Of a stretch of 64,000 nt of DNA, positions 6,346 through 45,891 are shown one piece after another. The notes below the pieces were generated by a model that was not told the DNA's origin, made no database searches, and worked only from the letters and a program-made list of their open reading frames with translations. The stretch comes from an uncultured Alphaproteobacteria bacterium (GTDB lineage: Bacteria > Pseudomonadota > Alphaproteobacteria > CAAHEQ01 > UBA3637). The number at the start of each line of letters is the position of its first letter. Position 1 is the first letter of the stretch. The stretch is taken from positions 22,889-86,888 of the forward strand of contig CANQUX010000004.1 in assembly GCA_947627155.1 (NCBI GenBank), given 5' to 3'. The translations under genes were made by a program, and so were the position numbers.

Positions 6346-6367
6346 AAAAGCATAAAGGGGATTATTG

Positions 6368-8563: not shown

Positions 8564-8580
8564 TAAATAAGGAGAGATAA

Positions 8581-14185: not shown

Positions 14186-14890
14186 ATGCGTTTTATAAAA
14201 AAATTTTTTTCAAAAGATTTAAATAAAGCTTTTGTACGGGCTTTTGAAAAAGGCTTCTATCAAAAGGCATTGCATTATGCGCAAAAAGGCGCCAATCCCA
14301 ATGCCAAAAATTTTGAAGGAAACACTTTTTTGCATTACTATGTTGCGGCTTATGTTCATGTGCCGGCACGTGAGTTGAAGGCGTTTCATTTACCCCCGGA
14401 ACCCGATGAAAACGTATTGGCGCAAATGAAAGAATTAGGCGCCGATATGGATTGTTTAAATCGTTATAAGCAAACACCGTTGGAAATGGCATTGGAAAAA
14501 GATGATCCGTTTATGGTTTCCGTTTTAATTCGAGCGGGTGCTGATAAAGAACATCGCAATAAAAACGGATTAACGCCGTTGCAAAATGCCGTTTATCACG
14601 GAATGGGTCGTTGTATGCGCATTTTGGTGCGTATGGGTGCCGATATTGAAGCAGAATTAACAACAGCCTCTTCTTTAACGCATTTGGCGGAAAAAGGAAA
14701 AGAAGTTTTCGGCAAGTTTGCACATACGAATTTTGAAAGAGTTGACATGATTTTGCAAGAATTGAAAGAAAAGGGATTTAACGTTGATAAAACGCCGAAG
14801 CCGAAAGAAATAACGGGCTTAGCCATTGTTGAACCCGCTTTCGATATTCAAGTGATTAAAAATTTGCAAAATCAAAATACACGTTCTTAA
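14186..14890 (+). CDS. Ankyrin-repeat protein.
   Basis: Ankyrin units of the 'G.TPLH.A...G' type are visible: 'NGLTPLQNAVYHGMGRCMRILVRMGADIE' and 'YKQTPLEMALEKDDPFMVSVLIRAGAD'. Confidence 0.8.
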   Translation: MRFIKKFFSKDLNKAFVRAFEKGFYQKALHYAQKGANPNAKNFEGNTFLHYYVAAYVHVPARELKAFHLPPEPDENVLAQMKELGADMDCLNRYKQTPLEMALEKDDPFMVSVLIRAGADKEHRNKNGLTPLQNAVYHGMGRCMRILVRMGADIEAELTTASSLTHLAEKGKEVFGKFAHTNFERVDMILQELKEKGFNVDKTPKPKEITGLAIVEPAFDIQVIKNLQNQNTRS

Positions 14891-14905
14891 ATAAAGGCAA
14901 AAATA

Positions 14906-15556
14906 ATGAATGATTTTTTAAACAGTAACAGATTATTGAGTGAATCAATATGCTCTGATGATATTGTCGGTGTTCGAACGGCATTAGACAGAGGAGCTCA
15001 TTTGTCGGGAGTTGTTTTATTGGATGATAATATGCATACCGTGGAATGTGCCGTGTTAAATTTGCCGTTAAATCAAGCTTTTAATGAAAAAGTTTCCGAT
15101 GAAATTATCACGCTTTTAAAAAAAGCGGGTGCCGGTTGTGAAATTCCCAATATTTACAGATGTTCGGCACTTTATTTTGCATCGGCAAACGGGTTTTGTG
15201 CTTTGGCGCAAAAACTTGTTCAGGAGGGCAGTAAAATTGATGCGCGTAATTTGTTCGGTGAAACCCCGCTGCATGTGGCCATTCGGTCAGGACAACAAAA
15301 AATGGTTCAACTGTTGTGTGAAATGGGAGCCAATATATTTTTATCCGATAAAAGCGGGCGAACACCGCTTAAATTGATTGCTTTACTTAAAGAATCAAGA
15401 AAATACGGTCGCAAAAATATCAGCCGGCAACAGCTTGATGAAATGTATCGCATTTTAATCAATTCCAAGCAAATGCAAAAAGTTGAACCTGTTCGAATTT
15501 CTTCTCAAAAACCGAAAATTTTGCTTCGTTTTCAAAAAGAAAGGGTTTATGCATGA
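14906..15556 (+). CDS. Ankyrin-repeat protein.
   Basis: 'FGETPLHVAIRSGQQKMVQLLCEMGANI' and 'SGRTPLKLIA' are ankyrin units. It overlaps the next gene by 4 nt. Confidence 0.8.
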   Translation: MNDFLNSNRLLSESICSDDIVGVRTALDRGAHLSGVVLLDDNMHTVECAVLNLPLNQAFNEKVSDEIITLLKKAGAGCEIPNIYRCSALYFASANGFCALAQKLVQEGSKIDARNLFGETPLHVAIRSGQQKMVQLLCEMGANIFLSDKSGRTPLKLIALLKESRKYGRKNISRQQLDEMYRILINSKQMQKVEPVRISSQKPKILLRFQKERVYA

Positions 15557-16578
15557 CAGAGAGTGAAGAGAGCGTGGAATCACAGGTGCGGAAAAATAAG
15601 CAGGAAGAAAAAATTTTTGTCATTAAACGACTGTTCCTGTCTTATTTGATTCAACAATTTAAAAAATCGCATCCGGAACATTTTTCGCATAAAGTCTTTG
15701 CCGATTATTATCAAAAACTGGTTGAAACAGAGCAATTGCAAGAGCAGTTTATGCTTTTTATTGACGAAAAAACAGAAAAAAAGGTTCAGGAAAAACCATC
15801 GTTTTTGCAAAAAGGCAAAACGTTTCTTACAAATTTATTCCGCAAAAAAACACCGGCGGATTATCAAAAAATAATTGCCGATCGGTTATATGATGAGTAT
15901 CTTAAAAACATTCTTTTGAAAAAGCCGATATCGACGAATGCGGTTTATTCCCTGCTTGAAAAATGCGACACAACGGAGTTTTATATCAAATCACCTTATA
16001 CGGTTTTCGGAGATTTGACGCCGTTAACTTTTGCTTGCAAGGTTAATGATTCGAGCTTGGTTCATAAGCTTCAAAGATTAAATGCCGATGTGAATTTTCC
16101 CGACAGTGATTTAAATTTACCGCTTCATTTATCGGTGCAATGGGGGCGTTATGAAATTGTTCAATCCTTACTGATGAGTGATGAAATTGATAAAGAGTGT
16201 CCGGATTATAAAACCGGCAGAACGCCTTTACAGGAGGCTGCTTTTTGCGGATATGCCGATATGATGGGATTGTTGCTGATGAACGGTGCGCGGTTTGAAG
16301 ATCCCGAAAAATTAGCGGCTTTGGCTCGAAAAGGAAAAATGTATCGGATGTCAACGGATAAGAAAGAAGATTTTGAAAAAAGAAATTTTGAAAATGTTTT
16401 GGAAATGATTCACTATTATGCCGATCAAAAAAATGAAAAACATCAATCGGCCGAAATGACCGAAAAAACAGAAACAATCTCTATGCAAAATAAACCCGTT
16501 AAAATTATGTCGGATCAGCACCTAAATCAACTCATACGAACGGGGTTAGGCTTCAATTTATCGCGGGAGCATACTTAA
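15553..16578 (+). CDS. Ankyrin-repeat protein.
   Basis: 'DLNLPLHLSVQWGRYEIVQSLLMS' and 'TGRTPLQEAAFCGYADMMGLLLMNGA' are ankyrin units. It is the third gene of a tandem ankyrin trio. Confidence 0.75.
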   Translation: MTESEESVESQVRKNKQEEKIFVIKRLFLSYLIQQFKKSHPEHFSHKVFADYYQKLVETEQLQEQFMLFIDEKTEKKVQEKPSFLQKGKTFLTNLFRKKTPADYQKIIADRLYDEYLKNILLKKPISTNAVYSLLEKCDTTEFYIKSPYTVFGDLTPLTFACKVNDSSLVHKLQRLNADVNFPDSDLNLPLHLSVQWGRYEIVQSLLMSDEIDKECPDYKTGRTPLQEAAFCGYADMMGLLLMNGARFEDPEKLAALARKGKMYRMSTDKKEDFEKRNFENVLEMIHYYADQKNEKHQSAEMTEKTETISMQNKPVKIMSDQHLNQLIRTGLGFNLSREHT

Positions 16579-22988: not shown

Positions 22989-24047
22989 ATGAAAAAAATC
23001 AGTTTGTTTTTGCTTGCGTTAACAGTTTCGTTGCCTGCTTTTGCCGGTTTTGTAGAGGGGGAACAAGCTTTTAACGAACAACGCTATTCTCAAGCCTTTA
23101 ACGAATTTTTACCGTTAGCGAACGAGGGTGATTTTCGGTCGCAGTATTATGTGGCTTATTTATACATTAACGGATACGGTGTCACACAAAACGCCAAAGA
23201 AGGGTTAAAATATTTGCAGCAGGCCGTTGATCAAAATTATGATATGGCACAAGCTTTAATGGCTTATTTATATTCTGAAGGGAAAATTGTTCCGGAGGAT
23301 AAAGAAAAAGCCATCGAGCTTTATCAACTGGCGGCTGATCAAAACAATATTTCCGCTAATTTAAATTTGGGGGTTATGTATTATAAAGGCGATTCGGTGC
23401 CGCGGAACTATCAAACCGCATTGGAATATTTCCAAAAGGTGCCGCTTGATCAAAACCCGGTTGTCAGCCGATATTTGGGCGATATTTACCTGAATAATGC
23501 TTCTTTGCGTGATTACAGCAAAGCGTTGCAATATTATGAATTATCGGCCAAACAAAAAGATTTAAGTGCCTATTTCAGTTTGGGTGAAATGTATCGCAAA
23601 GGATTGGGTGTTGATCAGGATATGTCACAAGCTCTCACCTATTATAAATATGCCGCTTCGCAAAATTACAGTTCGGCACAGTATATGTTGGGTATTATTT
23701 ACGCAAACGGTGAAGGTGTTTCAAAAGATGTTTATAAGGCTTATGCGTGGTTTCATTTAGCTGCCGAGCAAAATTTAACCAGTGCTGCCGATGCGCAACA
23801 ACGTTTAATTAAAAATATGTCGTTATCCGATTTGGATATGGCGCGGCGCCAGGTGGTACTTATTCAGCAAAATGAAATGGGTAAAATTGAGGCCCCGTTA
23901 AAGCCGGATCCGGTTCCGCAAGTGGTCGAGGCAACAGGTGCTGCTTCCGGTCAGGGTGCCATTTCCGTGTATGGCGGAAGTGCCAGTTCGGCCGGCGGCA
24001 ATTCCGGTAATGCAAAACGGCGTGTTTTACGCAGACGGAGGAGATAA
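22989..24047 (+). CDS. Secreted Sel1-repeat (TPR-like) protein.
   Basis: Signal peptide. There are about 7 Sel1 units of the form 'A...Y..AA.QG...AQ..LG.MY..G.GV..D...A..W'. The C-terminus is a basic tail, 'RRVLRRRRR'. Confidence 0.8.
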   Translation: MKKISLFLLALTVSLPAFAGFVEGEQAFNEQRYSQAFNEFLPLANEGDFRSQYYVAYLYINGYGVTQNAKEGLKYLQQAVDQNYDMAQALMAYLYSEGKIVPEDKEKAIELYQLAADQNNISANLNLGVMYYKGDSVPRNYQTALEYFQKVPLDQNPVVSRYLGDIYLNNASLRDYSKALQYYELSAKQKDLSAYFSLGEMYRKGLGVDQDMSQALTYYKYAASQNYSSAQYMLGIIYANGEGVSKDVYKAYAWFHLAAEQNLTSAADAQQRLIKNMSLSDLDMARRQVVLIQQNEMGKIEAPLKPDPVPQVVEATGAASGQGAISVYGGSASSAGGNSGNAKRRVLRRRRR

Positions 24048-26358: not shown

Positions 26359-26418
26359 CCCTCTATCGGCGGGTGTGACAGACGGCTTTATGTCGTCTGG
26401 TGCTATGGGTGAAAGGGG
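26359..26418. repeat. Solo copy of a ~60 bp MITE-like palindromic repeat (family with 'CCCTCTATCGGCGG ... CCGATAGGGG' termini).
   Basis: CCCTCTATCGGCGGGTGTGA, then the palindromic core CAGACGGCTTTATGTCGTCTG, then CTATGGGTGAAAGGGG. The same family occurs at 52481, 52704, 53063, 55101, 55191 and 55373. Confidence 0.55.
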
Positions 26419-26442: not shown

Positions 26443-26478
26443 GTGTTGCACAAATTAAACGTACGTTTTTTGCAACAC
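26443..26478. promoter_or_regulatory. Nested-palindrome operator-like site upstream of pilin-adhesin gene A.
   Basis: GTGTTGCA, then caaatt, then AAACGTACGTTT (a perfect 12 bp palindrome), then ttt, then TGCAACAC. The outer 8 bp arms are a perfect inverted repeat. The same architecture is found at 30073-30102 and, degenerate, at 53403-53435. Confidence 0.5.
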
Positions 26479-26590
26479 TTTTTTTTGATTTTTGTAAAAA
26501 AAATTTATTTTAAGTGGAAATGATTGATTTTTCGACTGTTTTTTAAGGGTGATTTTTTGCCTTTTGAAGGCAATTTTGACCCCTGAATCC

Positions 26591-26623
26591 GCGTTGCATT
26601 AAAGGTACGTTTAATTGTATACT
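26591..26623 (+). promoter_or_regulatory. Conserved promoter box of pilin-adhesin gene A.
   Basis: TTGCAT (26594-26599), then 17 nt, then GTATAC or TATACT. The spacer TAAAGGTACGTTTAATT is itself a near-palindrome. The 26-mer is identical to the one at 53549-53574. Confidence 0.45.
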
Positions 26624-26650
26624 GTTCGTATAATGAAAGGGAGTCGGAAA

Positions 26651-28012
26651 ATGACCATGCAATCAAAAAAACAAATTCAAAATCAATCCCAAAGTGGCCG
26701 TTCAATGGTTGAAATGCTGGGTGTGTTGGCGATTATTGCTATTCTGTCCATCGGCGGGATTGTCGGATTCCGATTGGCAATGAATTATTATCAAGCCAAT
26801 CAAATTGCCCATGAAATGAATATCATGCGCACCGATGCGCAGATAAAAATCGCCCAAGGCGCGGAGGAATTAACCCTCGGTGATCCGTATGACAGCGGAA
26901 ATATTCAATTTAACGGATATAAAACCGATTTTGATTGTCTTTATATGGAAACGGAAACGTCAGAACCCGAACTTGCTTCCTGTGCCGTTGCAAATGCCTA
27001 TTATATTGAAATGCAAAAAATTCCCGAAGGCATTTGCAAACCGCTGGCGAATTTAATTGATAAAATGGATAACGAAATTGCTTTTTATATCAATGGGAAA
27101 TCGGTTGATGCGGCAGAGGGAGAAAAAGGCGCTTGCCTTGGAGAAGAGAATATATTAACGGTGATCTTCGGTGCCGATTCGGATTCGGAGGCGATTAAGT
27201 GTAATGATGATCCCGATTGTCCCGATAACTTACCGATTTGTCATGAACATTTGTGTGTGGAGTGTGAAACGGATGAAGATTGCCCCTATAACACACAATA
27301 TTGTGAAGGAAATGCTTGTCAAACGTGTCCCGATAATCAAATATGGGGCGGTGCAGGAAAAGGTTGTGTGGAATGTTTAACATATGAAGATTGCACAGAT
27401 CCCGAAAAACCCAAATGTGAGCAAACTACAAACAAGTGCGTAGCGTGTCCGCCGAAATCGGTCTTTTATGAGGGCGAATGCTATGAATATGAATGTCGCA
27501 CCAACGAAGATTGCGCTGATAAAGGTGATGGCTATTATTGTCATGCCGAAGACGGAGATCGCACGTCTGACGGAGGCACGAACTATTCCGAATGGATAGA
27601 CAAACCGGGACAATATCTCGGCGGGAAATGCAAAAATGCCAGTCAAAGCAAAATGACGACGCCTGATGATGTTCCCTATGTGGTTTCTCAAGAAAAAATG
27701 GATTGGTGGTCTGCACAGCGTTTTTGTGAAGTACTTCATATGAGAACCGCCTCACGAAGAGATTTCGGTTGTGAAAATACAATAACTGATACTGATTGTG
27801 CTACTATAGATTGTTGTAAAAATGAAAAACTTGAATATCTTGATGAACATCATTTTCCGCGTGTCCCTGTTTGGTTAGAGTTAGTTACAGATCCGACTGA
27901 CAGATTATATGGACGAGCTATCAGTTTTGGTACAAAAAATAACACAAATATAGATTCGGATTTTCCGGCTTGGGGGGAAACAACGTCAAATTATGCTTTC
28001 TGTCAACCTTAA
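26651..28012 (+). CDS. Modular minor pilin/tip-adhesin candidate A. It consists of a class-III signal pilin domain, a Cys-rich stalk, and a lectin-like C-terminal domain.
   Basis: RBS AAAGGGAG 7 nt before the ATG at 26651. Leader 'MTMQSKKQIQNQSQSG|RSMVEMLGVLAIIAILSIGG' with Glu at +5. The middle region has repeated 'C..DEDCP' modules. The C-terminus, 'MDWWSAQRFCEVLHMRTASRRDFGC', is conserved with the paralog at 53605. Confidence 0.7.
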   Translation: MTMQSKKQIQNQSQSGRSMVEMLGVLAIIAILSIGGIVGFRLAMNYYQANQIAHEMNIMRTDAQIKIAQGAEELTLGDPYDSGNIQFNGYKTDFDCLYMETETSEPELASCAVANAYYIEMQKIPEGICKPLANLIDKMDNEIAFYINGKSVDAAEGEKGACLGEENILTVIFGADSDSEAIKCNDDPDCPDNLPICHEHLCVECETDEDCPYNTQYCEGNACQTCPDNQIWGGAGKGCVECLTYEDCTDPEKPKCEQTTNKCVACPPKSVFYEGECYEYECRTNEDCADKGDGYYCHAEDGDRTSDGGTNYSEWIDKPGQYLGGKCKNASQSKMTTPDDVPYVVSQEKMDWWSAQRFCEVLHMRTASRRDFGCENTITDTDCATIDCCKNEKLEYLDEHHFPRVPVWLELVTDPTDRLYGRAISFGTKNNTNIDSDFPAWGETTSNYAFCQP

Positions 28013-29366: not shown

Positions 29367-29807
29367 TTAGCTTTGTTTGAATTCAACAGCGCTCATTTTT
29401 GCAGAGGCGCATCCGTCATTTTTACCCAAAATGCTGGCACCGGCTTTGCAAACGGCATCTGTCGGAAATTCAATATCTAATTTTACAATACCTTTTTTCA
29501 AATCTTCTTCTGAAGAAGAGGTATAAGTAATTTTAGCGCCACCGGGGGTTGTACTGCTGCCGGAATTAATTAAACCGGAACTGGCTAACGTGGGGGTTGA
29601 CCAATTATTGCCCATGGCGCTCGCCGTTTGATAGCTGGAATAAATAACCACGGCAAATTTATTGGCCATATCCAGTGCTTCATTGGCGCGATAACGATTC
29701 ATTGCCATGGAATAACCGGCAATACCGCCAATGGATAAAACGCCGATAATGGCTAAAACGCCCAGCATTTCAACCATTGACCGGCCTGATTCGTTTGTTC
29801 TTTTCAT
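29367..29807 (-). CDS. Type IV pilin, major-pilin-like (PilS-like).
   Basis: Leader 'MKRTNESG|RSMVEMLGVLAIIGVLSIGGIAGY' with Glu at +5. The C-terminus 'CKAGASILGKNDGC' is a disulfide-bonded D-region pair. 146 aa. An AAGGA RBS lies before the second ATG; the alternative start is 29822. Confidence 0.7.
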   Translation of the reverse strand: MKRTNESGRSMVEMLGVLAIIGVLSIGGIAGYSMAMNRYRANEALDMANKFAVVIYSSYQTASAMGNNWSTPTLASSGLINSGSSTTPGGAKITYTSSSEEDLKKGIVKLDIEFPTDAVCKAGASILGKNDGCASAKMSAVEFKQS

Positions 29808-29920
29808 TTTTTGTCCTTTCATTTATGTTGTTTTTTAAGCTCCCCGAGCCAAAAAACGTTTATTTTTAAGGCATTATTGCCTTATTTTCCCTATCGAGAG
29901 ATTTTTTTCTCTCATTTATG

Positions 29921-29950
29921 AGTATAAAATAAACGTCCCTTTAATTCACC
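29921..29950 (-). promoter_or_regulatory. Proximal conserved box upstream of the PilS-like pilin gene.
   Basis: On the minus strand it reads GGTGAATTAAAGGGACGTTTATTTTATACT. This is related to the TTGCATTAAAGGTACGTTTAATT(G)TATACT box of the two adhesin genes. Confidence 0.35.
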
Positions 29951-30072: not shown

Positions 30073-30102
30073 GTGTTGCAAAAAACGGACGTTTAATGCA
30101 AC
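30073..30102. promoter_or_regulatory. Nested-palindrome operator-like site upstream of the PilS-like pilin gene.
   Basis: GTGTTGCA, then aaa, then AAACGGACGTTT, then aa, then TGCAAC. It lies ~270 nt 5' of the start codon and has the same architecture as 26443-26478. Confidence 0.45.
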
Positions 30103-36136: not shown

Positions 36137-37774
36137 TTACGCAAGTTCTGCGCCGTTTGTGCGATTTAACAGATAATTAGATTCTTCATTGGTTTCAACA
36201 AGTTGAGTACCGGCCAGTTTTAATGTTGTTAACCCGCCGCCGGATTCGTTTGTTTTGCCGGATTCTTCGGCATTTGAATGCGTATCAGCGTGTTGCGAGA
36301 CCGTATTGTCGGAAGCAATTTTGTTTTCGTTCGGCACTTTCGGCGCGGCCGGGTTTGCTGCTTTTTCGGTATTGTCAGTCGCCTTGTCAGTTGCCTTGTC
36401 GGCTTTTTGTTCGGTAGCAGCTTTTTGTTCGGTGGCAGATTGTTCGTTGGAATCTTGTGCTTTTTCCTGATTATCAGGTGTTTGATATTTACTGACATCT
36501 ATGCCGGCCATTTGAACAATCTTTTGATCAACATTTTTATTCTGAACAACTTCTTTTATTTTTGTGTCAATGGATTGAGAAATATTCCTCGCTTTTATTC
36601 TTTCTGGTTCTGATAAACTGGTATTTTCTGACCATTCTTTGAGAATCTTTACAGTTTTTGCTGCATTTTTTAATGCCTCAACTTTTTGCTCTTTTGGGGA
36701 TAATTTAGTTGATTTTTCATTCTTGGAATTCTCTCGGGATATTTTCTCAAGTTTAGCTATATCTTCCGAAGACCAGTTGTTTTCTTTTGCCAATTCTTTC
36801 CATTCTTCAAGCTTTTTTTTGTGCAGCATCTCATCCATTTTAGCAATATTTTCATCAGAAGCTCCCAAAATTTTTGCTGTCTTGACAATGGCTTTCAAAT
36901 CATTTGAATTGATAGTGTCTATGAGGTTGTTTTTGTCCTCTTCTACTCTTTGCTCTATTGATTCACCGTTAGAATTTTTTTCAGTATAGCTTTTTTCTAC
37001 GCTTCCGCCTTGTTTCTCTACTTTATCTCTTGTGGCCGCCATGGCTTTTGTCTGAATATTTGCGTTCCGAGCAGCTACACGATATTTGTCGGCAGCTTCT
37101 GTATCTCCCCGCTCACGCGCCTCTTCTTCTAAACGCTGAAATTTTTCTGCTTCTTGTTTTTTTTGCTCTATTCCTTCTTGCAATGATTGTAATCTGTATG
37201 CCTGTTGTAATTCCGGCGGTAATTTTTCGGCATTTTTATCAATTTGTTGCATCCAGTTAAGCATCATTTGCGGCGTTTCGTTTATATGACGCAAAATTTC
37301 TTCTTTGGAGCTGTGTTCCCAATCAAAATGATCATATTTGCTCCAAAAATCACTGTAATCTTTAGCGGCTTGCAACTTAATTTGTGCAATTTGTTGCGCT
37401 GTTAAAACCTGTTGCTGATCTTGATGAATTTGCGCTTGTATTAACGCTTCTTTTTTATCGTTTCCCGACGTTTTTACGCTTTTAAACGATTCTTGGTAGT
37501 AAGAGTATACCTGGGGGGGGGTATTCTGCATCGCATTTTCCCGGCTTCCTGCCGGCAATTCCGCCAAAGCCGTACGCAGCATTTCATCACAGGCGGTTTT
37601 GGTTGTTTCATTCGGATTTGTGTGATACGAATCGATTAAAGAAGCTAAATCTGCCATTTGCGCTTGAAATTTTGCCATTGATTCGTTTGTTAAAACAACG
37701 GTTGCCTTGGGTTGAGACATTATCGGTGCTTTGGGTAAATTTAAACGTGATAGGACTTGCGTGGTTGATGGCAT
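36137..37774 (-). CDS. Low-complexity coiled-coil protein (Gln/Lys/Glu-rich); secreted effector-like candidate.
   Basis: 545 aa with no TM segment and no enzyme motifs. 'ATEQKAATEQKADKATDKATD' repeats near the C-terminus. Confidence 0.45.
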   Translation of the reverse strand: MPSTTQVLSRLNLPKAPIMSQPKATVVLTNESMAKFQAQMADLASLIDSYHTNPNETTKTACDEMLRTALAELPAGSRENAMQNTPPQVYSYYQESFKSVKTSGNDKKEALIQAQIHQDQQQVLTAQQIAQIKLQAAKDYSDFWSKYDHFDWEHSSKEEILRHINETPQMMLNWMQQIDKNAEKLPPELQQAYRLQSLQEGIEQKKQEAEKFQRLEEEARERGDTEAADKYRVAARNANIQTKAMAATRDKVEKQGGSVEKSYTEKNSNGESIEQRVEEDKNNLIDTINSNDLKAIVKTAKILGASDENIAKMDEMLHKKKLEEWKELAKENNWSSEDIAKLEKISRENSKNEKSTKLSPKEQKVEALKNAAKTVKILKEWSENTSLSEPERIKARNISQSIDTKIKEVVQNKNVDQKIVQMAGIDVSKYQTPDNQEKAQDSNEQSATEQKAATEQKADKATDKATDNTEKAANPAAPKVPNENKIASDNTVSQHADTHSNAEESGKTNESGGGLTTLKLAGTQLVETNEESNYLLNRTNGAELA

Positions 37775-37916
37775 TTACACTCTCCTTAATAAATTCTTAA
37801 TAATTGTATCACAAAAAAGAATCCCTGTCAACGAAAAAAAGATAACTGCTTTTAGTGTTTGTTTTCATTAAAAAAATCCGACAATAATGCCGGATTTTTT
37901 ATCGCTTTTTAAGGCT

Positions 37917-38153
37917 TTATTTTTTAAATAAATTGCAATGGCAATGCCCCATTGTGGCAATTTCCTGCTCATGCTCGCCGCACGGACAAAAACCGCGTGA
38001 AACATCACACGGGCAATGCCCCTGACATGCGTTAATGCACCGATTGATAATTTTATCGGCAAACGGTGTGAGTTGATATCCTTTCGCTTTGGCATAAAGT
38101 TCCAAGGCGTGCTTAAAGTGATTGTTGTTGTTTAAAATTTCATCTTGTTCCAT
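37917..38153 (-). CDS. Small Cys-rich protein resembling the ferredoxin-thioredoxin reductase catalytic chain.
   Basis: 'CQGHCPC ... CPCGEHE ... CHC' matches the CPC/CHC spacing of FtrC-like proteins. 78 aa. Confidence 0.4.
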   Translation of the reverse strand: MEQDEILNNNNHFKHALELYAKAKGYQLTPFADKIINRCINACQGHCPCDVSRGFCPCGEHEQEIATMGHCHCNLFKK

Positions 38154-38168
38154 TTTTTTTCTCCTTGA

Positions 38169-38675
38169 TTATAATATAAAATGAATGCCGTATAAAACAA
38201 ATGAAGCATATAGACCGGCAATAACATCATCTGCCATCACACCGAATGCATTATGTGTTTTTCTGTCAATAATGGAGGCCGGCCACACTTTCACAATGTC
38301 AAAAAAACGAAATAACGCGAATCCGATAAAATAATCATACCATATTAAACCGCTTTGTGCAACCCATAAAAAGGTGAGCAGTTGCCCCACTGTTTCATCA
38401 ATGACCACATAGCCCGGATCGGTTGCTTTTTGCGCTTTTAAAACAACGCTTGTTGCTTGCTGCCCGATGAAAAACAAAAGAATACCGGAAATGAGAATGC
38501 CCCAAAAACCGAGCGGTGCCAGCACAAAAACAAGCGGTAACGTGAAAAACGAACCGGCCGTGCCGGGCGCTTTGGGAGATAACCCCGAAAAGAACCATGT
38601 TGCCACGGCAAAAGCCGCTTTTATTTTCATCGGCTGATTTTTAATGTCGGCAAAATGAACGCGTTGCTTTGTCAT
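38169..38675 (-). CDS. pgpA: Phosphatidylglycerophosphatase A.
   Basis: 'LSPKAPGTAGSFFTLPL' is the PgpA signature. 168 aa membrane protein. Confidence 0.8.
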   Translation of the reverse strand: MTKQRVHFADIKNQPMKIKAAFAVATWFFSGLSPKAPGTAGSFFTLPLVFVLAPLGFWGILISGILLFFIGQQATSVVLKAQKATDPGYVVIDETVGQLLTFLWVAQSGLIWYDYFIGFALFRFFDIVKVWPASIIDRKTHNAFGVMADDVIAGLYASFVLYGIHFIL

Positions 38676-38681
38676 AACCGA

Positions 38682-40028
38682 TTATGCCTTCGGTGCGGGG
38701 TTTGCGGGCATTGCCGGGGCACGCAATCCGGTAACAACTTGCTGTTTACTTTCTTGCTGTTCTTCTGGCGCCGGTTGTTGTTCCGTTTGTTGCGTCGCTT
38801 GTGATGTCGCTGGCTCTGATGTTGTTGCAGCTGCGGCTTTTTCCGTTGACTCGGCTTGTGTTTCATCAGTTGTTGCAATTTCTTCCGTGTCTTCGGATGA
38901 ATTTGTAATTTCACTTAAACTGGCGCGAATTCTTTCAAGCTCCTCATCAAAATCGGAAGTTTCTTCCTGAGCGGCTTCTTCCGTTGCGGCTGAATTTTCT
39001 TGTGTTTTTGCCTCTTCGGGTTGCGTTTTGGTCGATTCGCTCGGTGTTGCCTCAACGGCAGGCGCTTGTTTTGATTTTAACGGCACTTTTTCAACCGGAT
39101 GCGGTGCCGGATCGGTTTCGCCGTCTTTTAAATCAAAATACGCACTTAAAAACGAAGCCAAATCAGGCAATTCATCTTTGGGTTCGGCATTATTAAAGCC
39201 TAAAAGAAAAATGCCTTTGGAGCGAAAATATTCAACGGCTTGCTTGGTATTTAAAACGCGTCCGTCCGTAACCAATATGGCCGATAACACTTCGGAATTC
39301 GGTTCGGATTTGGCCAATGATTTTGAAGCGCCGATTAAATCTTGCGCCAAACGTTCCATAACGCCGCCCTCCGAATACCATCCGCCGGCCGTGACATCGT
39401 CGGTAAATTCAACCGACCAATTCACTTTCTTTTTGTTGACAATTTCAATTAAAACGGCGCGCGCATCGGTTGAAATGGCCATCGGTACCCGAAAGCCTTC
39501 CAGAAGAATGTGTTGAAAAATTTCCACCTTATATTTTCGCGCCAACGCCGCCGCTTGTTTAATCATTTGCGCTAAATTGGCATGACTCTTTTCACCGGAA
39601 ACCACTTCATCTTTTTGGTTGGGCAACCGCGGCGCCACATAACGATTGATTTGCATGGTGGAAGGCATTTTGCGCGGCATATGATAAATCGGCTTCGATT
39701 CTTTTAACTCGAATTTTGACTGAACTGCTTTTTTCATTTTTATTTTCGGCTTTAATTTTTTCCAATTCAAATGATAGAAAAAATGCCAGCCCCAAAGCCA
39801 AAGCGGAATCCAAGCAATCATCATGAAAAGTAATAATGTATCGGGCAGGGTGTTAATGCGCCATTTGTAATTGAAAAAATCGGTATATCGTTTTTCCCAA
39901 TCTTGCGCCGACAGGAAATTGAAATCTAAAAAATAGCCGATCAGCGGTAGAATAATGTAACCGTATATAATGGCCCACAAGAAGAATGTTAATATCAGTT
40001 TTATCGGTTGTGTTTTTGCTTTTGCCAT
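38682..40028 (-). CDS. Membrane-anchored hypothetical protein with an acidic Gln/Glu/Thr-rich C-terminal tail.
   Basis: Two N-terminal TM segments, a ~200 aa globular region, then 'EEAAQEETSDFDEELERIRASLSEITNSSEDTEE...'. No motif was identified. Confidence 0.45.
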   Translation of the reverse strand: MAKAKTQPIKLILTFFLWAIIYGYIILPLIGYFLDFNFLSAQDWEKRYTDFFNYKWRINTLPDTLLLFMMIAWIPLWLWGWHFFYHLNWKKLKPKIKMKKAVQSKFELKESKPIYHMPRKMPSTMQINRYVAPRLPNQKDEVVSGEKSHANLAQMIKQAAALARKYKVEIFQHILLEGFRVPMAISTDARAVLIEIVNKKKVNWSVEFTDDVTAGGWYSEGGVMERLAQDLIGASKSLAKSEPNSEVLSAILVTDGRVLNTKQAVEYFRSKGIFLLGFNNAEPKDELPDLASFLSAYFDLKDGETDPAPHPVEKVPLKSKQAPAVEATPSESTKTQPEEAKTQENSAATEEAAQEETSDFDEELERIRASLSEITNSSEDTEEIATTDETQAESTEKAAAATTSEPATSQATQQTEQQPAPEEQQESKQQVVTGLRAPAMPANPAPKA

Positions 40029-40040
40029 GGCTTTTCCCGT

Positions 40041-42128
40041 TTAGTTTCCTCTTGAATTGTTGTTGCGTATGTTCATTTGCGTGTTTACATTCTTTTCAAC
40101 ACCGTTTCGAGCATTGCTTAACTGTCGTTGTTGTTGTAAGACTTGTTGTTTTTTCTCATCATTGTCACGCTTTTTGGTTTCTAATTGTTGAGCTTTTGCC
40201 GTTAATTTGTCTTTATTCTCATTGTTAACGGGAACTTTGGTACCGTTTGGTAATTCCACAACGGGATTTTTTAAATTGCCTTTGACGGTTACTTTATCTA
40301 ACGGATCTAATTGGTTAGCTGCTTGTAAAGCTTCGTCGCGCAATTTGGCTTGCTCCGATGTTTGCACTGTTTTGGGCGCTGCCGCTTTCGGTACGGGTGC
40401 CTGTTGTTGCGGCTGCGGCGCTTGTTGTTGCTGCGGTGCCTGTTGTTGCGGCTGCGGTGCTTGCTGTTGATGTTGCGGCGCCTGTTGTTGCGGCTGTGGT
40501 GCCTGTTGTTGCGGCTGCGGCGCTTGCTGTTGCGGTTGCGGCGCCTGTTGTTGCGGCTGCGGTGCCTGTTGTTGCGGTTGCGGCGCTTGTTGTTGCTGCG
40601 GTGCTTGTTGTTGCGGCTGCGGCGCTTGTTGTTGATGTTGCGCCACCTGAATCGTTTGCATTTTCGCCGCTTGCGATGCTATTTCTTTTAATTCTTTTCC
40701 CATCAAAGCCAGGCCGGTTGCTTCATAAGCAACGTTTTTAAAGGGAGGCACTTGGGCATAATGAGTCATATAGGTGGTATAGCGTTTTTTTTGCGCTCGT
40801 GTCATTTTATTAAAATCAATCGTGCCGTTTTCATTTTTCGGTAAACCGGCCGCAAAATCGCGTTTTTCCTTTAATGCCTCTTCATATTTTGAATAAGGCC
40901 CCTTGGAGGGGATTTTTTTATAAGCAGGATCGTTTAATAACCATTCTTGCGTGTCATGCGCTAAAACGGCTGCCAGTTTCGGCATGCTTAACCCGTTGTT
41001 TCTTAAATTCGTATCAATAAATTCATTTCGCTTTGATTGCCGAATTTTATCGTTTTCTTTCATGTTGGCGTGAATTTGATTAAGCCATTCGGTTGCCATG
41101 TCAATGGGCGCCAAAAGAGCCAATTCCATTACTTGAAACATTAAATCTTCGGGATTTTTGCCGGAACCGACTTTTTCAAGACGGCTTAACCCTTTTTCAA
41201 AAATTTTTGAGCTGTCAATGGTTTTTAAATCATCTTTATTAACAGGCGCTTTGTCAAAATAACCGCTGCTGCCGTCACTTGTTTTGACATTAAAAGCTTC
41301 TTGCATTTCGGCTAAATCGGCTTGCTGTTTATCCGGTTCGGTAATGCCTTCTTTCAAGGCAGAATGAATCTCGTTGCCTTTTTGCACTTCTTCTTTTATT
41401 TCTTCCGGAGAGAGCGGCATCGGTTGTTGTGTCGCTTGCGCCGGTTGTTGCGGCTGCGCATGTTGCTCTTGCGGCTGTGATACCTTTTGTTGCGGCTGCG
41501 GCATTTGCACCTGCGCCGCTTGTTTTATCGGTTGTTGTACCGTTTGCATCGGTTGTTGCGGCTGCACTTGTTGCTCTTGCACCTGCGCCGCTGGCTTCGT
41601 CGGTTGTTGTGCCGCTTGCGTCGGTTGTTGCGGCTGCGCTTGTTGCTCCTGCGGCTGCGATACCTTCTGTTGCGGTACTTTTTCCGTCGGCGTTATGTTT
41701 TGTTGCAACTTGTCGGCTTGTAAATTGTTCGTGCTTGTTTTTTCAGAATTGAAAGCTTGCGGATATCTGCTTTTTGCCCAATCCACCCACGCCGATTTTT
41801 GAGCGAGAATGTTGGTTTCATGAAACGATAATGCATTCCCTTTTTCCTTTTTGTCATCAATTTGTTTAATAAGGGGAATTACCTGTGCCAACCGTTGCAC
41901 GCTTTGCTGATTTTGAATGGCCGATACCAGATTTCCCATTTCGGGTGATTGTAGTGCCAATTCTTTGAGTTTGCCTTTATCGCCCGATTTGACGGCTTCG
42001 GTCACATTTTTAATCTGTATTTTGCGTGCCGCCTCCGGAAAGTATTTCATTGCTTCCGTTAAATCGACCGTACTTTGTTGAATCAGTTGTTCCAATTGTT
42101 GATCACTTATAAACGCTTTTGCCATCAC
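40041..42128 (-). CDS. Gln/Pro-repeat protein carrying a conserved ~130 aa domain shared with the protein at 50607.
   Basis: There are 12 or more tandem 'QQQAPQP' units and 'QQPxxAAQVQ' repeats. The central 'DLMFQVMELALLAPIDMATEWLNQIHANMKEN ... WLLNDPAYKKIPSKGPYSKYEEALKEKRDFAAGLPKNENGTIDFNKMTRAQKKRYTTYMTHYA' aligns with the 50607 product. Confidence 0.6.
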   Translation of the reverse strand: MMAKAFISDQQLEQLIQQSTVDLTEAMKYFPEAARKIQIKNVTEAVKSGDKGKLKELALQSPEMGNLVSAIQNQQSVQRLAQVIPLIKQIDDKKEKGNALSFHETNILAQKSAWVDWAKSRYPQAFNSEKTSTNNLQADKLQQNITPTEKVPQQKVSQPQEQQAQPQQPTQAAQQPTKPAAQVQEQQVQPQQPMQTVQQPIKQAAQVQMPQPQQKVSQPQEQHAQPQQPAQATQQPMPLSPEEIKEEVQKGNEIHSALKEGITEPDKQQADLAEMQEAFNVKTSDGSSGYFDKAPVNKDDLKTIDSSKIFEKGLSRLEKVGSGKNPEDLMFQVMELALLAPIDMATEWLNQIHANMKENDKIRQSKRNEFIDTNLRNNGLSMPKLAAVLAHDTQEWLLNDPAYKKIPSKGPYSKYEEALKEKRDFAAGLPKNENGTIDFNKMTRAQKKRYTTYMTHYAQVPPFKNVAYEATGLALMGKELKEIASQAAKMQTIQVAQHQQQAPQPQQQAPQQQQAPQPQQQAPQPQQQAPQPQQQAPQPQQQAPQPQQQAPQHQQQAPQPQQQAPQQQQAPQPQQQAPVPKAAAPKTVQTSEQAKLRDEALQAANQLDPLDKVTVKGNLKNPVVELPNGTKVPVNNENKDKLTAKAQQLETKKRDNDEKKQQVLQQQRQLSNARNGVEKNVNTQMNIRNNNSRGN

Positions 42129-42187
42129 TTATTCTCCTTGACATAAATATGGTTCTATTATAGCACATTTTTACGGCTTGTCAAACG

Positions 42188-42823
42188 CTATATTTTTAAT
42201 CCTTTTAAAAATTTGGCAATTTTGGCGTTTTCCTCTTTGGCGGCCTCCGGCGTTAAAATGGAATTACCCGATGAATCAATTGTAATAATGGGTGAAAAAT
42301 AGGCCGGGTTGGAAATGAGTGTATCATAAGCTTTTTTGGCATCTTTTCGATACATAATAAAATAGCAGGACATGAGTTTATAGGCATCAATGTGGAAATG
42401 TTGCGCATTGATTTGATCACCGAACGTGCGCACCAGTTCTTTCCGCCGGTTTTCTTCCTGCCGGATTTCATTTAAAACCCGAGTTGTTTCCTTCAATAAT
42501 TCAACGTTACGTTTGTAAATGGTTTCTTCCTGTTGTTTGAGCTTATATTCCATATAATCCAAAATAATATCTTTCCAAAACGGTTGATCATTGTAGTTTT
42601 GCTGCACAATTCGCAAAATATCTTTGACCTCACAGGTATTAATATCTTTCACACTGCATAAATATGAAACAATGGCAGCAGATTCTTTTTCAGCCAACGC
42701 AACGGGAAAATTTTGAACGTTGTATTGCGTTATGTCAATGGTGAGCTGCGGCGCCGCCGATAAAACGCTGCGCTGTGCATAGAGCCGGGAATATAAGCCG
42801 TAAAGAATGTCATTTGCCGCCAT
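42188..42823 (-). CDS. Hypothetical protein.
   Basis: 211 aa, soluble, no motifs. It is co-oriented with the Gln-rich gene. Confidence 0.45.
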   Translation of the reverse strand: MAANDILYGLYSRLYAQRSVLSAAPQLTIDITQYNVQNFPVALAEKESAAIVSYLCSVKDINTCEVKDILRIVQQNYNDQPFWKDIILDYMEYKLKQQEETIYKRNVELLKETTRVLNEIRQEENRRKELVRTFGDQINAQHFHIDAYKLMSCYFIMYRKDAKKAYDTLISNPAYFSPIITIDSSGNSILTPEAAKEENAKIAKFLKGLKI

Positions 42824-42991
42824 GTTGTTTTTTCCTCCCTCGGATATTTTTTAAAAATTTTTTGACCGTTTCAACGGTTGTTTCTTTCAGTATAAGCATA
42901 AATTTTAAAAAATCTACTAAAAAGTGTTGTCTTTTTTAAAAATATGGTGTATTATGGTAGTATAAGGTTAATTATTTAAGGGGAAAAATCA

Positions 42992-44515
42992 ATGAAAAAA
43001 CGCCTTTTTCTTATCTTAACTGCTTGTGTAACAACACTTTTCTGCTTTATTCCTTTTTCGGTACAAGCAGCGGGTTGGCTAACTAAAATTGCCGGTTCTA
43101 TTTTCCAAGGAGTCATGAGTATATTGGGTTTTGGTGACTCATTGAACGGGTGGTGTTGGTTTTGTCCCATTATTGAGACTTTGTTGAAAGGGGCTAACAC
43201 AATTTCGTGCAACATCTATCTTAGAACCAAAGATGAACTTTTAATCTTGTTGGGTGTGGGTACGTTGTTTTTCATTGCCTTTAAAGTGGGCGCCATGGTT
43301 GTTAAATTGCAGGAAGTTGACTTAATGCAATTTATGGGCGAAATGTTTAAAGTTTTGGGTCGCGTTATTATCGCGGCAGCTATTTTATCTTCTGCGCCGT
43401 TTGTTGTTGACAATATTATTACGCCGTTTGTGGCTTATTCAACCGATTTTGCTTTAAAAGCGTTGGATGATAAAAATATTGATGTGAGCAATAAAATTTA
43501 TAAAAAAGTTAAAGGTATGCTCGATTATGACGATCAGGCACGCGAGCAAGTAGAGGCTGCCGCAACCGCTGTTGTTACCTGGGCCGGACAAGATAATTCC
43601 GATTCGTGTGTCTTTATTAACAGTGCGTTGATTCAAAGTATGAAAGCCATCGTTGCCAAAATCACCGCAAATTTGGTTATCGGCTTGGCTGTCGGGTTGG
43701 TGTTGATTGTGTTCAGCGGACTTTCTTCTTTGGTCTTCCCTGATTTGCAAAGCGTGTTATCCGGCGGTGTTATCTTTATGTCCTTCGCGGTCTTAATTGT
43801 GACGGTACCGTTTCAAATGATCAATTTGGCAATTCAATTGGTGTTCGTGCTGGCTTTGCTACCGTTCTGGGTGGTGTTGTGGGTTTTCCCCGTTACGGCG
43901 CAATATACCAAGAAAGCGTGGGATATGTTTGTTACAACCTGCTTGTCAATTATGATTTTCGGTATTTTGGCGGCTTTGGTGTTAAATCTGCTGAATTATA
44001 TGTTGCCGAACGGCAGTGATATTTTGGGCGATATGATTCCGGGCTATGATTTGCTTGCCGGCAAAAAAGCCAGTGCTTTCTCTTCAAGCACTTTGTTAAC
44101 GCTTGCTTTGGGCTTCTTGTGCAAAGAGCTTTTAAAATCGGCACCCGAATTGGCTTCCCGTATTACCAGTGTTTACGGTATTCAGGTTGGTGAGTCAATG
44201 GCTTCGTCCATTTCTGCCGCCATTGCGGGCGGTGCGGCAGCCGGCGGTACCATGTTCGGTTTGGCAAAAGCCTTTGGCGGCACGAGTCTTGAAACGGCTC
44301 AATCAGTCGGCAAGAAAGGCAGTGAATTGTTCAGGGGTACGTTTGGTCTGGAAGAGGGTAAGAGCTTGCAAGATAAATATTTGTTCGGTAGTTCAAGCAG
44401 CAGCTCCGATTCCGGATCCAAAGCCGCAAACAGAAACACTTATCAACAACCGCAGGCGGGTAGCTCAAATTCAACGGCGCAAGCATCGCAACAACAAACA
44501 ACATCGAAAAAGTGA
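42992..44515 (+). CDS. Polytopic membrane protein, paralog 1 of a tandem trio, with a CWFCP motif.
   Basis: Signal peptide. 'NGWCWFCPIIETL' before TM1. About 6 TM segments. The conserved 'LLPFWVVLWVFPVTAQYTKKAW' segment is also seen in paralog 3. The tail is Gly/Ser/Gln-rich. Confidence 0.6.
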   Translation: MKKRLFLILTACVTTLFCFIPFSVQAAGWLTKIAGSIFQGVMSILGFGDSLNGWCWFCPIIETLLKGANTISCNIYLRTKDELLILLGVGTLFFIAFKVGAMVVKLQEVDLMQFMGEMFKVLGRVIIAAAILSSAPFVVDNIITPFVAYSTDFALKALDDKNIDVSNKIYKKVKGMLDYDDQAREQVEAAATAVVTWAGQDNSDSCVFINSALIQSMKAIVAKITANLVIGLAVGLVLIVFSGLSSLVFPDLQSVLSGGVIFMSFAVLIVTVPFQMINLAIQLVFVLALLPFWVVLWVFPVTAQYTKKAWDMFVTTCLSIMIFGILAALVLNLLNYMLPNGSDILGDMIPGYDLLAGKKASAFSSSTLLTLALGFLCKELLKSAPELASRITSVYGIQVGESMASSISAAIAGGAAAGGTMFGLAKAFGGTSLETAQSVGKKGSELFRGTFGLEEGKSLQDKYLFGSSSSSSDSGSKAANRNTYQQPQAGSSNSTAQASQQQTTSKK

Positions 44516-44541
44516 TAACGCGATAAAAAAGAGGGCAGACG

Positions 44542-45876
44542 ATGATTTATTTGAACAAAATCCGTTGTTCTATCGAAAAACTTTCAAAAGGAATGTTTTT
44601 ATTGTCCCTTCTGTTTTTAGGTGGCTGTTCCACGAATATTGATTCGATGATGATTACCCAGCTGTTGCTGGCAAAGGAAGAAAATTGTTGGCCGTGTACC
44701 ATGTATAAAGTAATATGGGAGGGTATCGGAACGCTGGTTTCGAATATTTATCCCGAGTTGTGCGGTGACGCCCTGGTATTTTTGGGTATCGGTCTGTTAT
44801 TTTGGATTTGCTTTACGGTCGGGAAATTGGTTGTTTCAATAAAAGAGCCGAATTTAAAAGATTTTATCAGCAATATGGCAACGGTTCTTTTTAAAGCCAT
44901 GGTGATTGCCGTTATTTTATCGGCTCATACTTATACGATTTATTTCTTGGATTTGATTGTCAGGAATGTATTGGAAGCATTTATGGATTTAACCTTGAAT
45001 ATTATGTTTTCAAGTCAGACCATTGCCAAAAGTTTGGCAACGGGGCATGTGTATGAGGGTGATATTGTTTCTACCGCTTCCGGTGCGGGGAATATTCTTT
45101 TTACAAGCGAAATCGGTCATCAAATACAAGACTTGATTTATCGTATTTATGTCGGCTTTCACGGCGGTTTGAGTTTGGGTGTTAATTTAATTTTTCAAAC
45201 GGATCCGTCTTTGGTTGTAACGGGTTTGTTTGTAACAGCCATATTCTTTTATTTAATGCTGATTATTCCGTTGTTGTTTATTGAGGCTTTTGCTTTGTTG
45301 GGTGCGGTTATTGTGTTTTTCCCGCTGGCGTTGGTGCTGTATGTTTTCCCGTCAACAAAGGCTTATGTGGTTCCCATGTGGAAGGTGTTGTTTGTTTCAA
45401 TGGCACAAATTTTGGTGACCGGTGTTTATATGGCGGTGATGATTCATGTGGTGCAGGTGTTTTCGGATAATATTCTGTCGCCGAGTCGCATTTTGTCCGA
45501 TCCGCTTTTGATGATGAATTTGAAAAATATGAAAGATCAGTTTTTGGCATTTTGTGCGTTGGCATATATTATGTATCGTATGTCCAAAGATATTCCGAAC
45601 ATTTCTTCCAAACTGCTGGGTGACTTTAACCGATCCATGATGTTAGCCGGTGTTTCAAAAGCCATTAATTTAGGTAAAAATATCGGTATGGCGCTGGGTG
45701 GTGCCGCTTTGGCGGGAACCGGTGTTGCCGGAGGTGTGGGTCTTTCCATGATGATGAGTGCCGGCAAAGGTATGATGGAAAATACGCGAAATCCTGACGG
45801 ACAAGGCGGTTCTTCCGGATTAAGTACGGCGGAACAGGCGCAACAGGCACAACAGGCTGCTGCCAAACCGAAATAG
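44542..45876 (+). CDS. Polytopic membrane protein, paralog 2, with a CWPC motif.
   Basis: Lipobox-like 'LFLGGCS'. 'ENCWPCTMYKVIWEG' before TM1. 'FFPLALVLYVFPSTKAYVVPMWKV' segment. Gly/Ala/Gln-rich tail. Confidence 0.6.
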   Translation: MIYLNKIRCSIEKLSKGMFLLSLLFLGGCSTNIDSMMITQLLLAKEENCWPCTMYKVIWEGIGTLVSNIYPELCGDALVFLGIGLLFWICFTVGKLVVSIKEPNLKDFISNMATVLFKAMVIAVILSAHTYTIYFLDLIVRNVLEAFMDLTLNIMFSSQTIAKSLATGHVYEGDIVSTASGAGNILFTSEIGHQIQDLIYRIYVGFHGGLSLGVNLIFQTDPSLVVTGLFVTAIFFYLMLIIPLLFIEAFALLGAVIVFFPLALVLYVFPSTKAYVVPMWKVLFVSMAQILVTGVYMAVMIHVVQVFSDNILSPSRILSDPLLMMNLKNMKDQFLAFCALAYIMYRMSKDIPNISSKLLGDFNRSMMLAGVSKAINLGKNIGMALGGAALAGTGVAGGVGLSMMMSAGKGMMENTRNPDGQGGSSGLSTAEQAQQAQQAAAKPK

Positions 45877-45891
45877 GGAGAAGGAGAAAAT

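Follow-up and report, generated by a model that had tools for sequence, protein, structure and literature searches.

The 64,000-nucleotide stretch of DNA examined here, called the window throughout (contig CANQUX010000004.1 of assembly GCA_947627155.1, positions 22,889 to 86,888, from an uncultured member of the Alphaproteobacteria), contains two paralogous genes, A and B, that a first-pass annotation made from the sequence alone had read as candidate variable adhesins in which a disulfide-rich stalk of variable sequence links a pilin head to a lectin-like tip. Both are intact open reading frames (ORFs) where that annotation placed them (coordinates of these and other features are collected in Table 1), and its core interpretation is supported by the results below. 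Two features that it did not contain are reported as well: a hypervariable tail on gene B of the diversity-generating retroelement (DGR) type, and at least three alternative tip domains within the protein family. The ATG at 26651 is the likely start of gene A, because it aligns with the starts of B and of homologs and is preceded, 7 nt 5', by the Shine-Dalgarno sequence AAGGGAG. Over their full lengths the two proteins are 35% identical by BLASTP (E 1e-48). Neither has a significant match in Pfam or NCBIfam, only sub-threshold hints of prepilin methylation.

Pairwise nucleotide alignment delimits what A and B share at their 5' ends. The BLASTN alignment of 26457-26893 with 53414-53847 covers 441 nt, at 76% identity (E 7e-86); a third, smaller pilin gene, C, aligns over less of this region. 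Within this region the identity is 88% in a distal upstream block, 55% in the interior between the upstream blocks, 90% in the proximal promoter block, 57% in the 5' untranslated region (UTR), 71% in the leader codons, 79% in codons 17-45 and 76% in codons 46-82; it falls to 34% in codons 83-117, and the 3' breakpoint is therefore placed at about codon 82, close to position 26896 in A and position 53850 in B. The annotation had claimed high identity through promoter, 5'-UTR, leader and the first 65 or so codons; this holds for promoter and leader, fails for the poorly conserved 5'-UTR, and is too short for the coding block. The segment IPEG(I/V)CKPL, predicted for both proteins, is indeed found in both (residues 124-132 of A) and marks a second conserved island, with 60% identity across A residues 121-140. 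The motif MDWWSA.RFCE.L is likewise found in both genes (at residue 350 in A and 383 in B), although the related C-terminal domain that contains it spans about 125-135 residues rather than the 90 first estimated. The middles of the two proteins are disulfide-rich and unrelated, as had been proposed: there are 30 cysteines in A and 29 in B, and the stalks, 23% identical, match through cysteines alone. The stalk of A is made of four C-x2-(D/E)-x-DC...C...CxxC units, and that of B of a repeat of another type, with CxC-P-x-G...ECxxC...G..W units. The tandem 'C.(D/E).DCP' arrays ascribed to both genes are thus a property of A, where C.(D/E).DC recurs four times, and not of B, where it occurs only once.

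In a model built with an alignment of 46 sequences, the last 136 residues of A are predicted to fold in the beta-alpha-alpha-beta4 order of a C-type lectin-like domain (CTLD), with a pLDDT (predicted local distance difference test) of 82.7 and a pTM (predicted template modelling score) of 0.80, and a Foldseek comparison concurs. The prediction shows all the characteristic elements of the CTLD superfamily: its topology, a W..A...C pattern in alpha1, a strand like 'WIGL', and pairing of the alpha1 Cys with one near the C-terminus. The closest CTLD types are the compact ones of NK receptors, intimin and Bd2740; the Ca2+ and sugar motifs EPN, QPD and WND are absent from the CTLD alignment. A CTLD profile run against PDB sequences returned weak matches only, nearly all of them to CTLDs and aligned on Y..S....W..A..FC (E 0.0075), and one family member matches the Pfam model Lcl_C (DUF1566) at 2e-4. 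A protein search with the CTLD fragment alone returned no matches, and an 18-sequence CTLD alignment was too divergent to be used for scanning loci. On the strength of the model, the C-terminal domain of A and B is predicted to be an alpha/beta CTLD, not a beta-sandwich, which bears out the lectin-like fold that the motif had suggested.

Protein searches with A and B returned 261 and 408 homologs, respectively, none of them named, and only one homolog among those listed has any Pfam domain; in the sources that were searched, more than 400 proteins of the family have neither a name nor an annotated domain. When one genome per species was scanned, at least 564 loci emerged, nearly all in metagenome-assembled genomes (MAGs) of uncultured Alphaproteobacteria, several per MAG, with sources that include the guts of rabbit, roe deer, goat, sheep, buffalo and human. 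Homologous proteins and related loci are designated below by P and L numbers. The family is constant in leader, helix and head; the stalk is very variable in length, and the proteins range from 350 to 790 residues. Three or more unrelated types of C-terminal tip occur, with the 'WWSA..FC...ALC' type of A and B on 99 of 122 members. Tip type 2 is carried by P0015, P0020, P0033 and P0045, and tip type 3 by P0044, P0046, P0049 and P0071, all on the same pilin heads; one of these two types ends in ...WLVLGDE or ...WLILKDE and the other in ...QQE(G/S)CVE(R/K). Neither the other tip types nor the long stalks have any Pfam match.

Segment-wise searches gave strongly incongruent matches for the separate modules. 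The head of A is 98% identical to that of P0004, 95% to that of P0003 and 92% to that of P0015, all of which bear other stalks and tips (that of P0015 being of another type); the best match to its stalk stands at 74%, and the best to its CTLD at 66%, followed by 38%. For B, the head is 99% identical to that of P0132, a protein only 54% identical to B overall; the stalk is 97% identical to that of P0125, and the CTLD 79% to that of P0103. When B is compared with P0103, near-identical blocks alternate with divergent ones. Repeats resembling repetitive extragenic palindromes (REP-like repeats), of two kinds and in 17 copies, occur in the window only next to A and flanking B. A 72-nt inverted pair (53059-53130 and 55095-55166, 90% complementary) brackets B with its promoter, and similar elements lie downstream of P0114 and P0105 on other contigs; they may be substrates of recombination or mobilisation. 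Assemblies in ENA and Logan recurrently break in the conserved 5' block, in the stalk, or shortly past the 3' end of the genes. Module incongruence, assembly breaks and REP-like repeats beside the genes thus together indicate recombinational variation, by exchange between complete, promoter-bearing paralogs. Variation of this kind between separate paralogous loci had been anticipated, with heads, stalks and tips now seen reshuffled among family members; the silent cassettes that had been envisaged were not encountered, every copy seen having its own promoter and a full ORF. No shufflon and no recombinase were found among the window ORFs scanned, nor any inverted 3' segments. The recurrent breaks at pilin genes also make the family a systematic source of MAG fragmentation, and it is probably under-counted. 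L083, L086, L090 and L094, which are independent assemblies from the same or related strains, break in the stalk of B (54178) or 29 or about 200 nt past variable regions; the break near the 5' block of A is placed there by extrapolation only.

The 3' end of gene B has an unusual codon composition. Its tail contains 22 consecutive NNY codons, 13 of its 14 fourfold-degenerate codons end in C or T (10 of them in C) as against 42% in the remainder of the gene, and none of the scaffold codons GCG, GTT, CTC, GGT, GTC and CGC includes an adenine. The variable-region DNAs of B, P0114, P0105, P0129, P0130 and the gene at L016 were set side by side. All six have in common the scaffold TCC TGC nnC GCG TAC nnC GTY nnC CTY nnY nnY GGT nnC GTC nnC nnC nnC nnT CGC ... 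TAC GCC TTA TGT GAG TGA GGCC(A/G)GC, within which the first, second and third codon positions account for 10, 11 and 5 variable sites; the invariant codons GCG, GTY, CTY, GGT, GTC, CGC and TCC are free of adenine, and a single adenine is invariant. If A is placed at every variable site of positions 1 and 2, the result is a run of AAC and AAT codons, which is how DGR templates are classically built. In 31 distinct tails from the subfamily, 477 of 486 variable residues (98.1%) can be encoded by NNY, and K, E, Q, M or W make up 1.9% of variable residues as against 22.4% elsewhere in the same proteins (binomial P 2e-40). Mapped through the model of A, the variable codons would cover the last three strands of the CTLD.

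A 3' cassette of about 100 nt is common to B, P0114 and P0105, which are otherwise dissimilar paralogs, and the CTLD sequence 5' of the cassette differs widely between the genes that carry it. A single ENA sample is the source of P0114, of P0105 and of a contig with 100% identity to the window, all at similar coverage (about 7.4-7.9x), so at least three targets with one cassette seem to lie in one genome; P0134, a further paralog with a similar tail, is encoded on the same 113,863-nt contig outside the window. Immediately 3' of the variable region, 55024-55040 is nearly G/C-only (one A), with only GGCC(A/G)GC common to other subfamily members. It is followed by an 8-bp GC stem (55053-55060 with 55079-55086) around an 18-nt loop, also found after P0114 and P0105; the fold z-score of -2.1 is not significant. 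A second scaffold, unrelated in nucleotides, occurs in two MAGs (L037, about 1130-1221, and L056, about 3720-3810), reading GCG TTC nnC GTG GAC CTT GAC nnn GGT nnC GTG AGC ... TAT GCT CTG TGT GTG AGG TAG and varying at codon positions 1 and 2 in the same way; because it follows the same logic, more than one DGR lineage may target pilins.

From the codon pattern, we consider it quite likely that the tail of B is, or recently was, the target of a DGR, whose reverse transcriptase (RT) and template repeat would then exist and may be active. Several results weigh against this. The signature is missing from gene A and its closest relatives, in which 3 of 11 fourfold-degenerate codons end in C or T. 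A search tolerant of adenine mismatches, run over the window and some 600 kb of related loci with their flanks, detected no template repeat; no RT, Avd or template repeat was found in the window, in the 10 kb past its left end, in the 8.6 kb past its right end or near five other family members; and a scan for RT motifs found none in 96 loci, again about 600 kb. For P0105 as for P0114, the sequences from two samples do not differ, and no ongoing diversification was observed. The failure to find an RT or template repeat and the identity between samples, together with the clearly active recombination between paralogs, would suit an account in which no DGR acts, or none acts any longer, on the B-type tail, the short cassette having spread among paralogs by gene conversion and its variation, rich in Tyr, Asn, Ser, Gly and Asp, being the product of antibody-like selection on a binding loop or the relic of an extinct DGR. 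Such an account is unlikely. Selection on amino acids leaves unexplained why third codon positions are largely fixed while the first two vary, scaffold residues are confined to adenine-free codons, and five residues are almost excluded from the variable sites; these features hold across paralogs and across MAGs in which the flanking CTLD has diverged, and in an old relic synonymous changes would have built up.

A DGR local to the window was considered separately and rejected, there being no template repeat, no RT motif and, in a Pfam search of about 50 ORFs, no RVT_1 domain. A profile of the B-type CTLD found no matches in JGI metagenomes and IMG/VR, and the scaffold pattern of the variable region had no match in IMG/VR and three spurious high-GC matches in metagenomes.

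The N-terminal region of A and B has the properties of a type IVb prepilin. The motif QSG followed by RSMVEMLGVLAIIAILSIGGIVG is present, with G16, E21 and the hydrophobic run invariant in an 18-sequence alignment, and the signal is of class III, with a positively charged leader ending in Gly, a Glu at +5 and about 20 hydrophobic residues. The N-terminal 170 residues of A are modelled as a 40-residue helix followed by a sheet, the arrangement of a pilin fold. The head finds its best matches in type IVb pilins, aligning with type IVb major pilins over 130 residues, in agreement with the pilin head first proposed. The leader length (within the 15-30 aa class), a residue other than Phe at +1, the large head and the type IVb machinery in the same window, with PAP_PilO and TcpQ domains, all point to the type IVb subclass. 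This machinery cluster, confirmed and extended in a second assembly (L086, 8614-18467), looks complete and extends past the start of the window; we presume that it assembles A, B and C. Its PAP_PilO protein belongs to the family of the R64 and PAPI-1 PilO proteins. Gene C, 1.4 kb away from A, has the same N-terminus and promoter element and is likely the major pilin; a motif scan found no pilin-like ORFs in the window besides these three.

The assignment to a pilus also has evidence against it. Matches of A and B to Pfam N_methyl (E 0.03) and to TIGR02532 fall below the cut-offs, the confidence of the N-terminal model is moderate (pLDDT 64.6), and the Pfam scans of window ORFs turned up no gene for a prepilin peptidase. 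A and B lie 17 kb and 44 kb from the pilus operon, and all three pilin genes are scattered among housekeeping genes. One might suppose from this that A and B are not pilus subunits, and that the pilin-like N-terminus only anchors or exports a lectin-like protein of the surface or periplasm, such as a pseudopilus-dependent substrate or an inner-membrane-anchored receptor. We judge this quite improbable, in view of the invariant motif (Gly, cleavage site, Glu at the fifth position) with its hydrophobic helix, the long match to type IVb major pilins, the neighbouring short pilin gene and the presence of a type IVb machinery, and because modular pilins form an established class (PMC8179133).

Genes A, B and C are preceded by a common arrangement of elements. 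A 23-nt sequence, TTGCAWWAAASGTACGTTTAWTT, has seven copies in the window as against 0.03 expected, and occurs only upstream of these three genes; at each gene, one copy lies close to the gene and points the same way as it, and a second, inverted copy lies roughly 140 bp further upstream with a conserved A/T tract after it. The proximal copies read as a sigma-70-like promoter with TTGCAT as -35 element, AAAGGTACGTTT within a 17-18-nt spacer and TATACT or TATGCT as -10 element, and conservation suggests that the proximal block acts as a promoter. The two-copy layout recurs, in constant orientation, upstream of about 15 homologs in other MAGs; the upstream inverted repeat is therefore not an invertible switch, and the pair more likely represents operator sites for a common regulator. 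That the repeats, with 24-nt arms 88% complementary and 116 nt apart upstream of A and the same layout at B and C, might flank an inverton through which phase variation picks the adhesin is barely credible and was rejected, as the interior has the same orientation at all three window copies and at the related loci, which come from several MAGs, the -35 element and spacer are part of the proximal arm with the -10 outside the repeat, and no recombinase gene was seen among the window ORFs scanned. A sigma-54 promoter was also rejected on inspection of the upstream sequence, the proximal block having no GG of a -24 element and the wrong spacing. A scan for consensus promoters and terminators was uninformative, and two tRNAs were all that Rfam detected in the window, the conserved upstream blocks matching none of its RNAs. 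The B-type loci have an additional conserved block 5' of the distal operator (53330-53400 in the window, GGTCAATATACTGC...CCGGTCGCCTCTCATCAAGGCGATTTTTTTT), with a terminator-like hairpin and no Rfam match, which is also present in the upstream regions of L001, L003, L008, L014, L016 and L049; because this block is common to B-type loci, the unit copied between loci reaches about 300 nt 5' of the start codon.

Considered jointly, these results make it likely that A and B belong to a large family of modular minor pilins of the type IVb kind, which is specific to their lineage and varied on three levels. The class III signal, alpha1 helix and pilin head would give the proteins entry into a pilus made by TCP/R64-like machinery, and a disulfide-rich spacer of variable type and length would stand between the head and a terminal, ligand-binding CTLD. 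By analogy with other bulky modular pilins, A and B most likely sit at the tip of the filament and act as adhesins. The first level of variation would be the many full-length paralogs per genome behind one promoter type with a two-site operator, a shared arrangement that implies common regulation or a choice between copies. The second is the exchange of heads, stalks and tips among paralogs by recombination. The third, in the subfamily of B and not in A, would be adenine-directed mutagenic retrohoming by a DGR, which would rewrite about 14-18 codons in the last three beta-strands of the CTLD. A more specific form of this proposal, in which one chromosomal DGR retrohomes one template into at least three dispersed type IVb tip pilins and, with module shuffling and a shared operator that may select the paralog expressed, makes up a three-tier diversity system, seems to us evenly balanced between right and wrong.

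Type IV pili rank with the most widespread organelles of bacterial adhesion, and to our knowledge variation of their binding specificity is known in few cases: PilV shufflons, gene conversion of Neisseria pilin, and modular minor pilins. Pilins that bear a grafted functional module, or modular pilins, are an established and widespread kind, and the PilB (von Willebrand factor A module) and PilC (lectin module) proteins of Streptococcus sanguinis are modular type IV pilins (Raynaud et al. 2021, PMC8179133). As in PilB and PilC, the pilin module of A and B is joined by a linker to a bulky ligand-binding module that is probably displayed at the tip, and lectin modules are among the known add-ons. 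Unlike PilB and PilC, the A/B family is of the type IVb kind, with a leader of 16-17 residues and a long disulfide-rich stalk inserted; its module is a predicted CTLD without a Pfam or InterPro signature, and it forms a large, reshuffled multigene family. CofB of enterotoxigenic Escherichia coli CFA/III (PMC6048534) and TcpB of the Vibrio cholerae toxin-coregulated pilus, TCP (PMC9565799), are type IVb tip pilins with C-terminal binding domains. CofB has a beta-repeat and an H-type-lectin-like beta-sandwich where A and B have Cys-rich repeats and a CTLD; CofB and TcpB are encoded by one copy in the pilus operon rather than by many dispersed paralogs, and outside the pilin helix there is no detectable sequence homology with A and B. 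In IncI1/IncI2 plasmids (R64, TP114), the PilV adhesins are varied by the Rci shufflon (PMC9045228). They resemble A and B in a constant pilin N-terminus with alternative C-terminal adhesin segments, in the type IVb pilus, and in PAP_PilO as part of the machinery. Unlike PilV, the A/B family consists of complete genes with their own promoters and CTLD tips, and no sfx-flanked invertible segments or Rci-type recombinase were found in the window. The first-pass annotation had assigned A and B the architecture of PilV, CofB and TcpB; the comparison stands as one of analogues and not as one of family members, since the genes lie outside the pilus operon, no shufflon or recombinase was found among the window ORFs scanned, and H-type lectin and beta-repeat domains are absent.

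Bordetella phage Mtd, Treponema TvpA and Legionella LdtA are DGR variable proteins with a C-type lectin (CLec) fold. B is like them in the predicted position of the variable region in the C-terminal strands, in its AAY-to-NNY logic, in the adenine-free scaffold, and possibly in the G/C-rich stretch and stem that follow. The tip adhesins of Bacteroides type V pili are diversified by DGRs (bioRxiv 10.1101/2024.11.15.621889), and there, as here, the target is a predicted adhesive pilus tip of a gut bacterium. The carrier here is a type IV(b) pilin, not a type V pilin, a phage fibre or a lipoprotein as in known DGR targets. Further differences from known systems are that at least three targets in apparently one genome share one cassette, that the RT and template repeat were not found in the sequence searched, and that the host is alphaproteobacterial. 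The C-terminal domain of Bdellovibrio bacteriovorus Bd2740 (PDB 8oks), 6-9% identical, belongs to a mosaic fibre tip, on trimeric fibres with a Peptidase_S74 domain, and not to a pilin. In the literature searched, a variable region in a 'GspG-type pilin' domain has been listed, as a rare case only (PMC11661182), and a DGR acting on a type IV pilus tip has been put forward only as an engineering idea, for programmable conjugation (bioRxiv 10.64898/2026.02.25.707879). A DGR-type hypermutation signature on type IV pili is not previously described in the literature searched. What is new is the combination of type IVb head, Cys-rich stalk, CTLD tip and large shuffled family with a DGR-type region in one subfamily. 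The locus points to a further solution in an abundant uncultured gut lineage, a library of complete tip-pilin genes made from exchangeable modules, in one subfamily of which the binding face of the CTLD appears to be rewritten by a retroelement. If this is true, DGRs on type IV pili, with several targets per apparent genome, widen the scope of targeted hypermutation in the gut and offer a natural template for an engineered DGR on a conjugative pilus tip.

Table 1. Features of the window discussed in the text. Positions are nucleotides of the window unless given as residues; functional labels are predictions.
Feature	Position	Strand	Description
Type IVb pilus machinery	1242-9708	+	TcpQ-domain protein, secretin, PAP_PilO, unknown protein, T2SSE ATPase, T2SSF platform protein
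REP-like palindromic repeat	26359-26375		one repeat, upstream of A
Distal inverted copy of 23-nt element, gene A	26453-26475	-	followed by A/T tract 26476-26512; putative second operator site
Proximal promoter block, gene A	26594-26623	+	TTGCAT (-35-like), 17-18 nt spacer with near-palindrome AAAGGTACGTTT, TATACT (-10-like)
Gene A	26651-28012	+	modular type IVb pilin, 453 aa
Gene A, leader	residues 1-16		predicted cleavage between G16 and R17, E at +5
Gene A, pilin head	residues 17 to about 175		
Gene A, Cys-rich stalk	residues about 176-317		
Gene A, CTLD tip	residues 318-453 (27602-28009)		no DGR signature
Gene C	29367-29822	-	151-aa pilin, N-terminus GRSMVEMLGVLAIIG as in A and B, C-terminal Cys pair
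Copies of 23-nt element, gene C	29927-29949 and 30076-30101		upstream of gene C
REP-like palindromic repeats	52590-53130		upstream of B; partners at 55095-55540
Distal inverted copy of 23-nt element, gene B	53410-53432	-	
Proximal promoter/operator element, gene B	53552-53574	+	identical to that of A
Gene B	53605-55023	+	modular type IVb pilin, 472 aa
Gene B, leader	residues 1-17		
Gene B, pilin head	to about residue 178		
Gene B, stalk	residues about 179-340		CxC/CxxC type
Gene B, CTLD tip	residues about 345-472		
DGR-type variable-region cassette	54931-55023	+	3' end of B; variable codons 54937-55008
Region 3' of B variable region	55024-55086	+	possible IMH (initiation of mutagenic homology) and target-recognition hairpin

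The machinery cluster also includes an unknown protein of 450 aa; the unknown protein that follows PAP_PilO has 403 aa. The pilus operon is without a pilin or prepilin peptidase gene, and in the longer assembly a gene of the TrbC/VirB2 family lies just upstream of it on the opposite strand. Related MAGs contain tandem arrays of pilin genes like C, encoding 130-170 aa; L064, for one, has three of them.

A Sel1-repeat protein and, in tandem, three proteins with ankyrin repeats are encoded at 14186-16578 and 22989-24047, and a 726-aa Ank/Sel1 protein adjoins the paralog P0114 in L081; such eukaryote-like repeats suggest an intimate association with eukaryotic host cells. Seven consecutive large ORFs of 211-695 aa at 36137-47952 have no Pfam match, and several of them begin with membrane- or signal-like segments. 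A 2,862-aa protein without a Pfam match, preceded by a 39-aa ORF, is found in L081 (12741-21329) and L095 (258-8846), with a pilin-CTLD paralog upstream of it in the former (P0114) and downstream in the latter (P0130).

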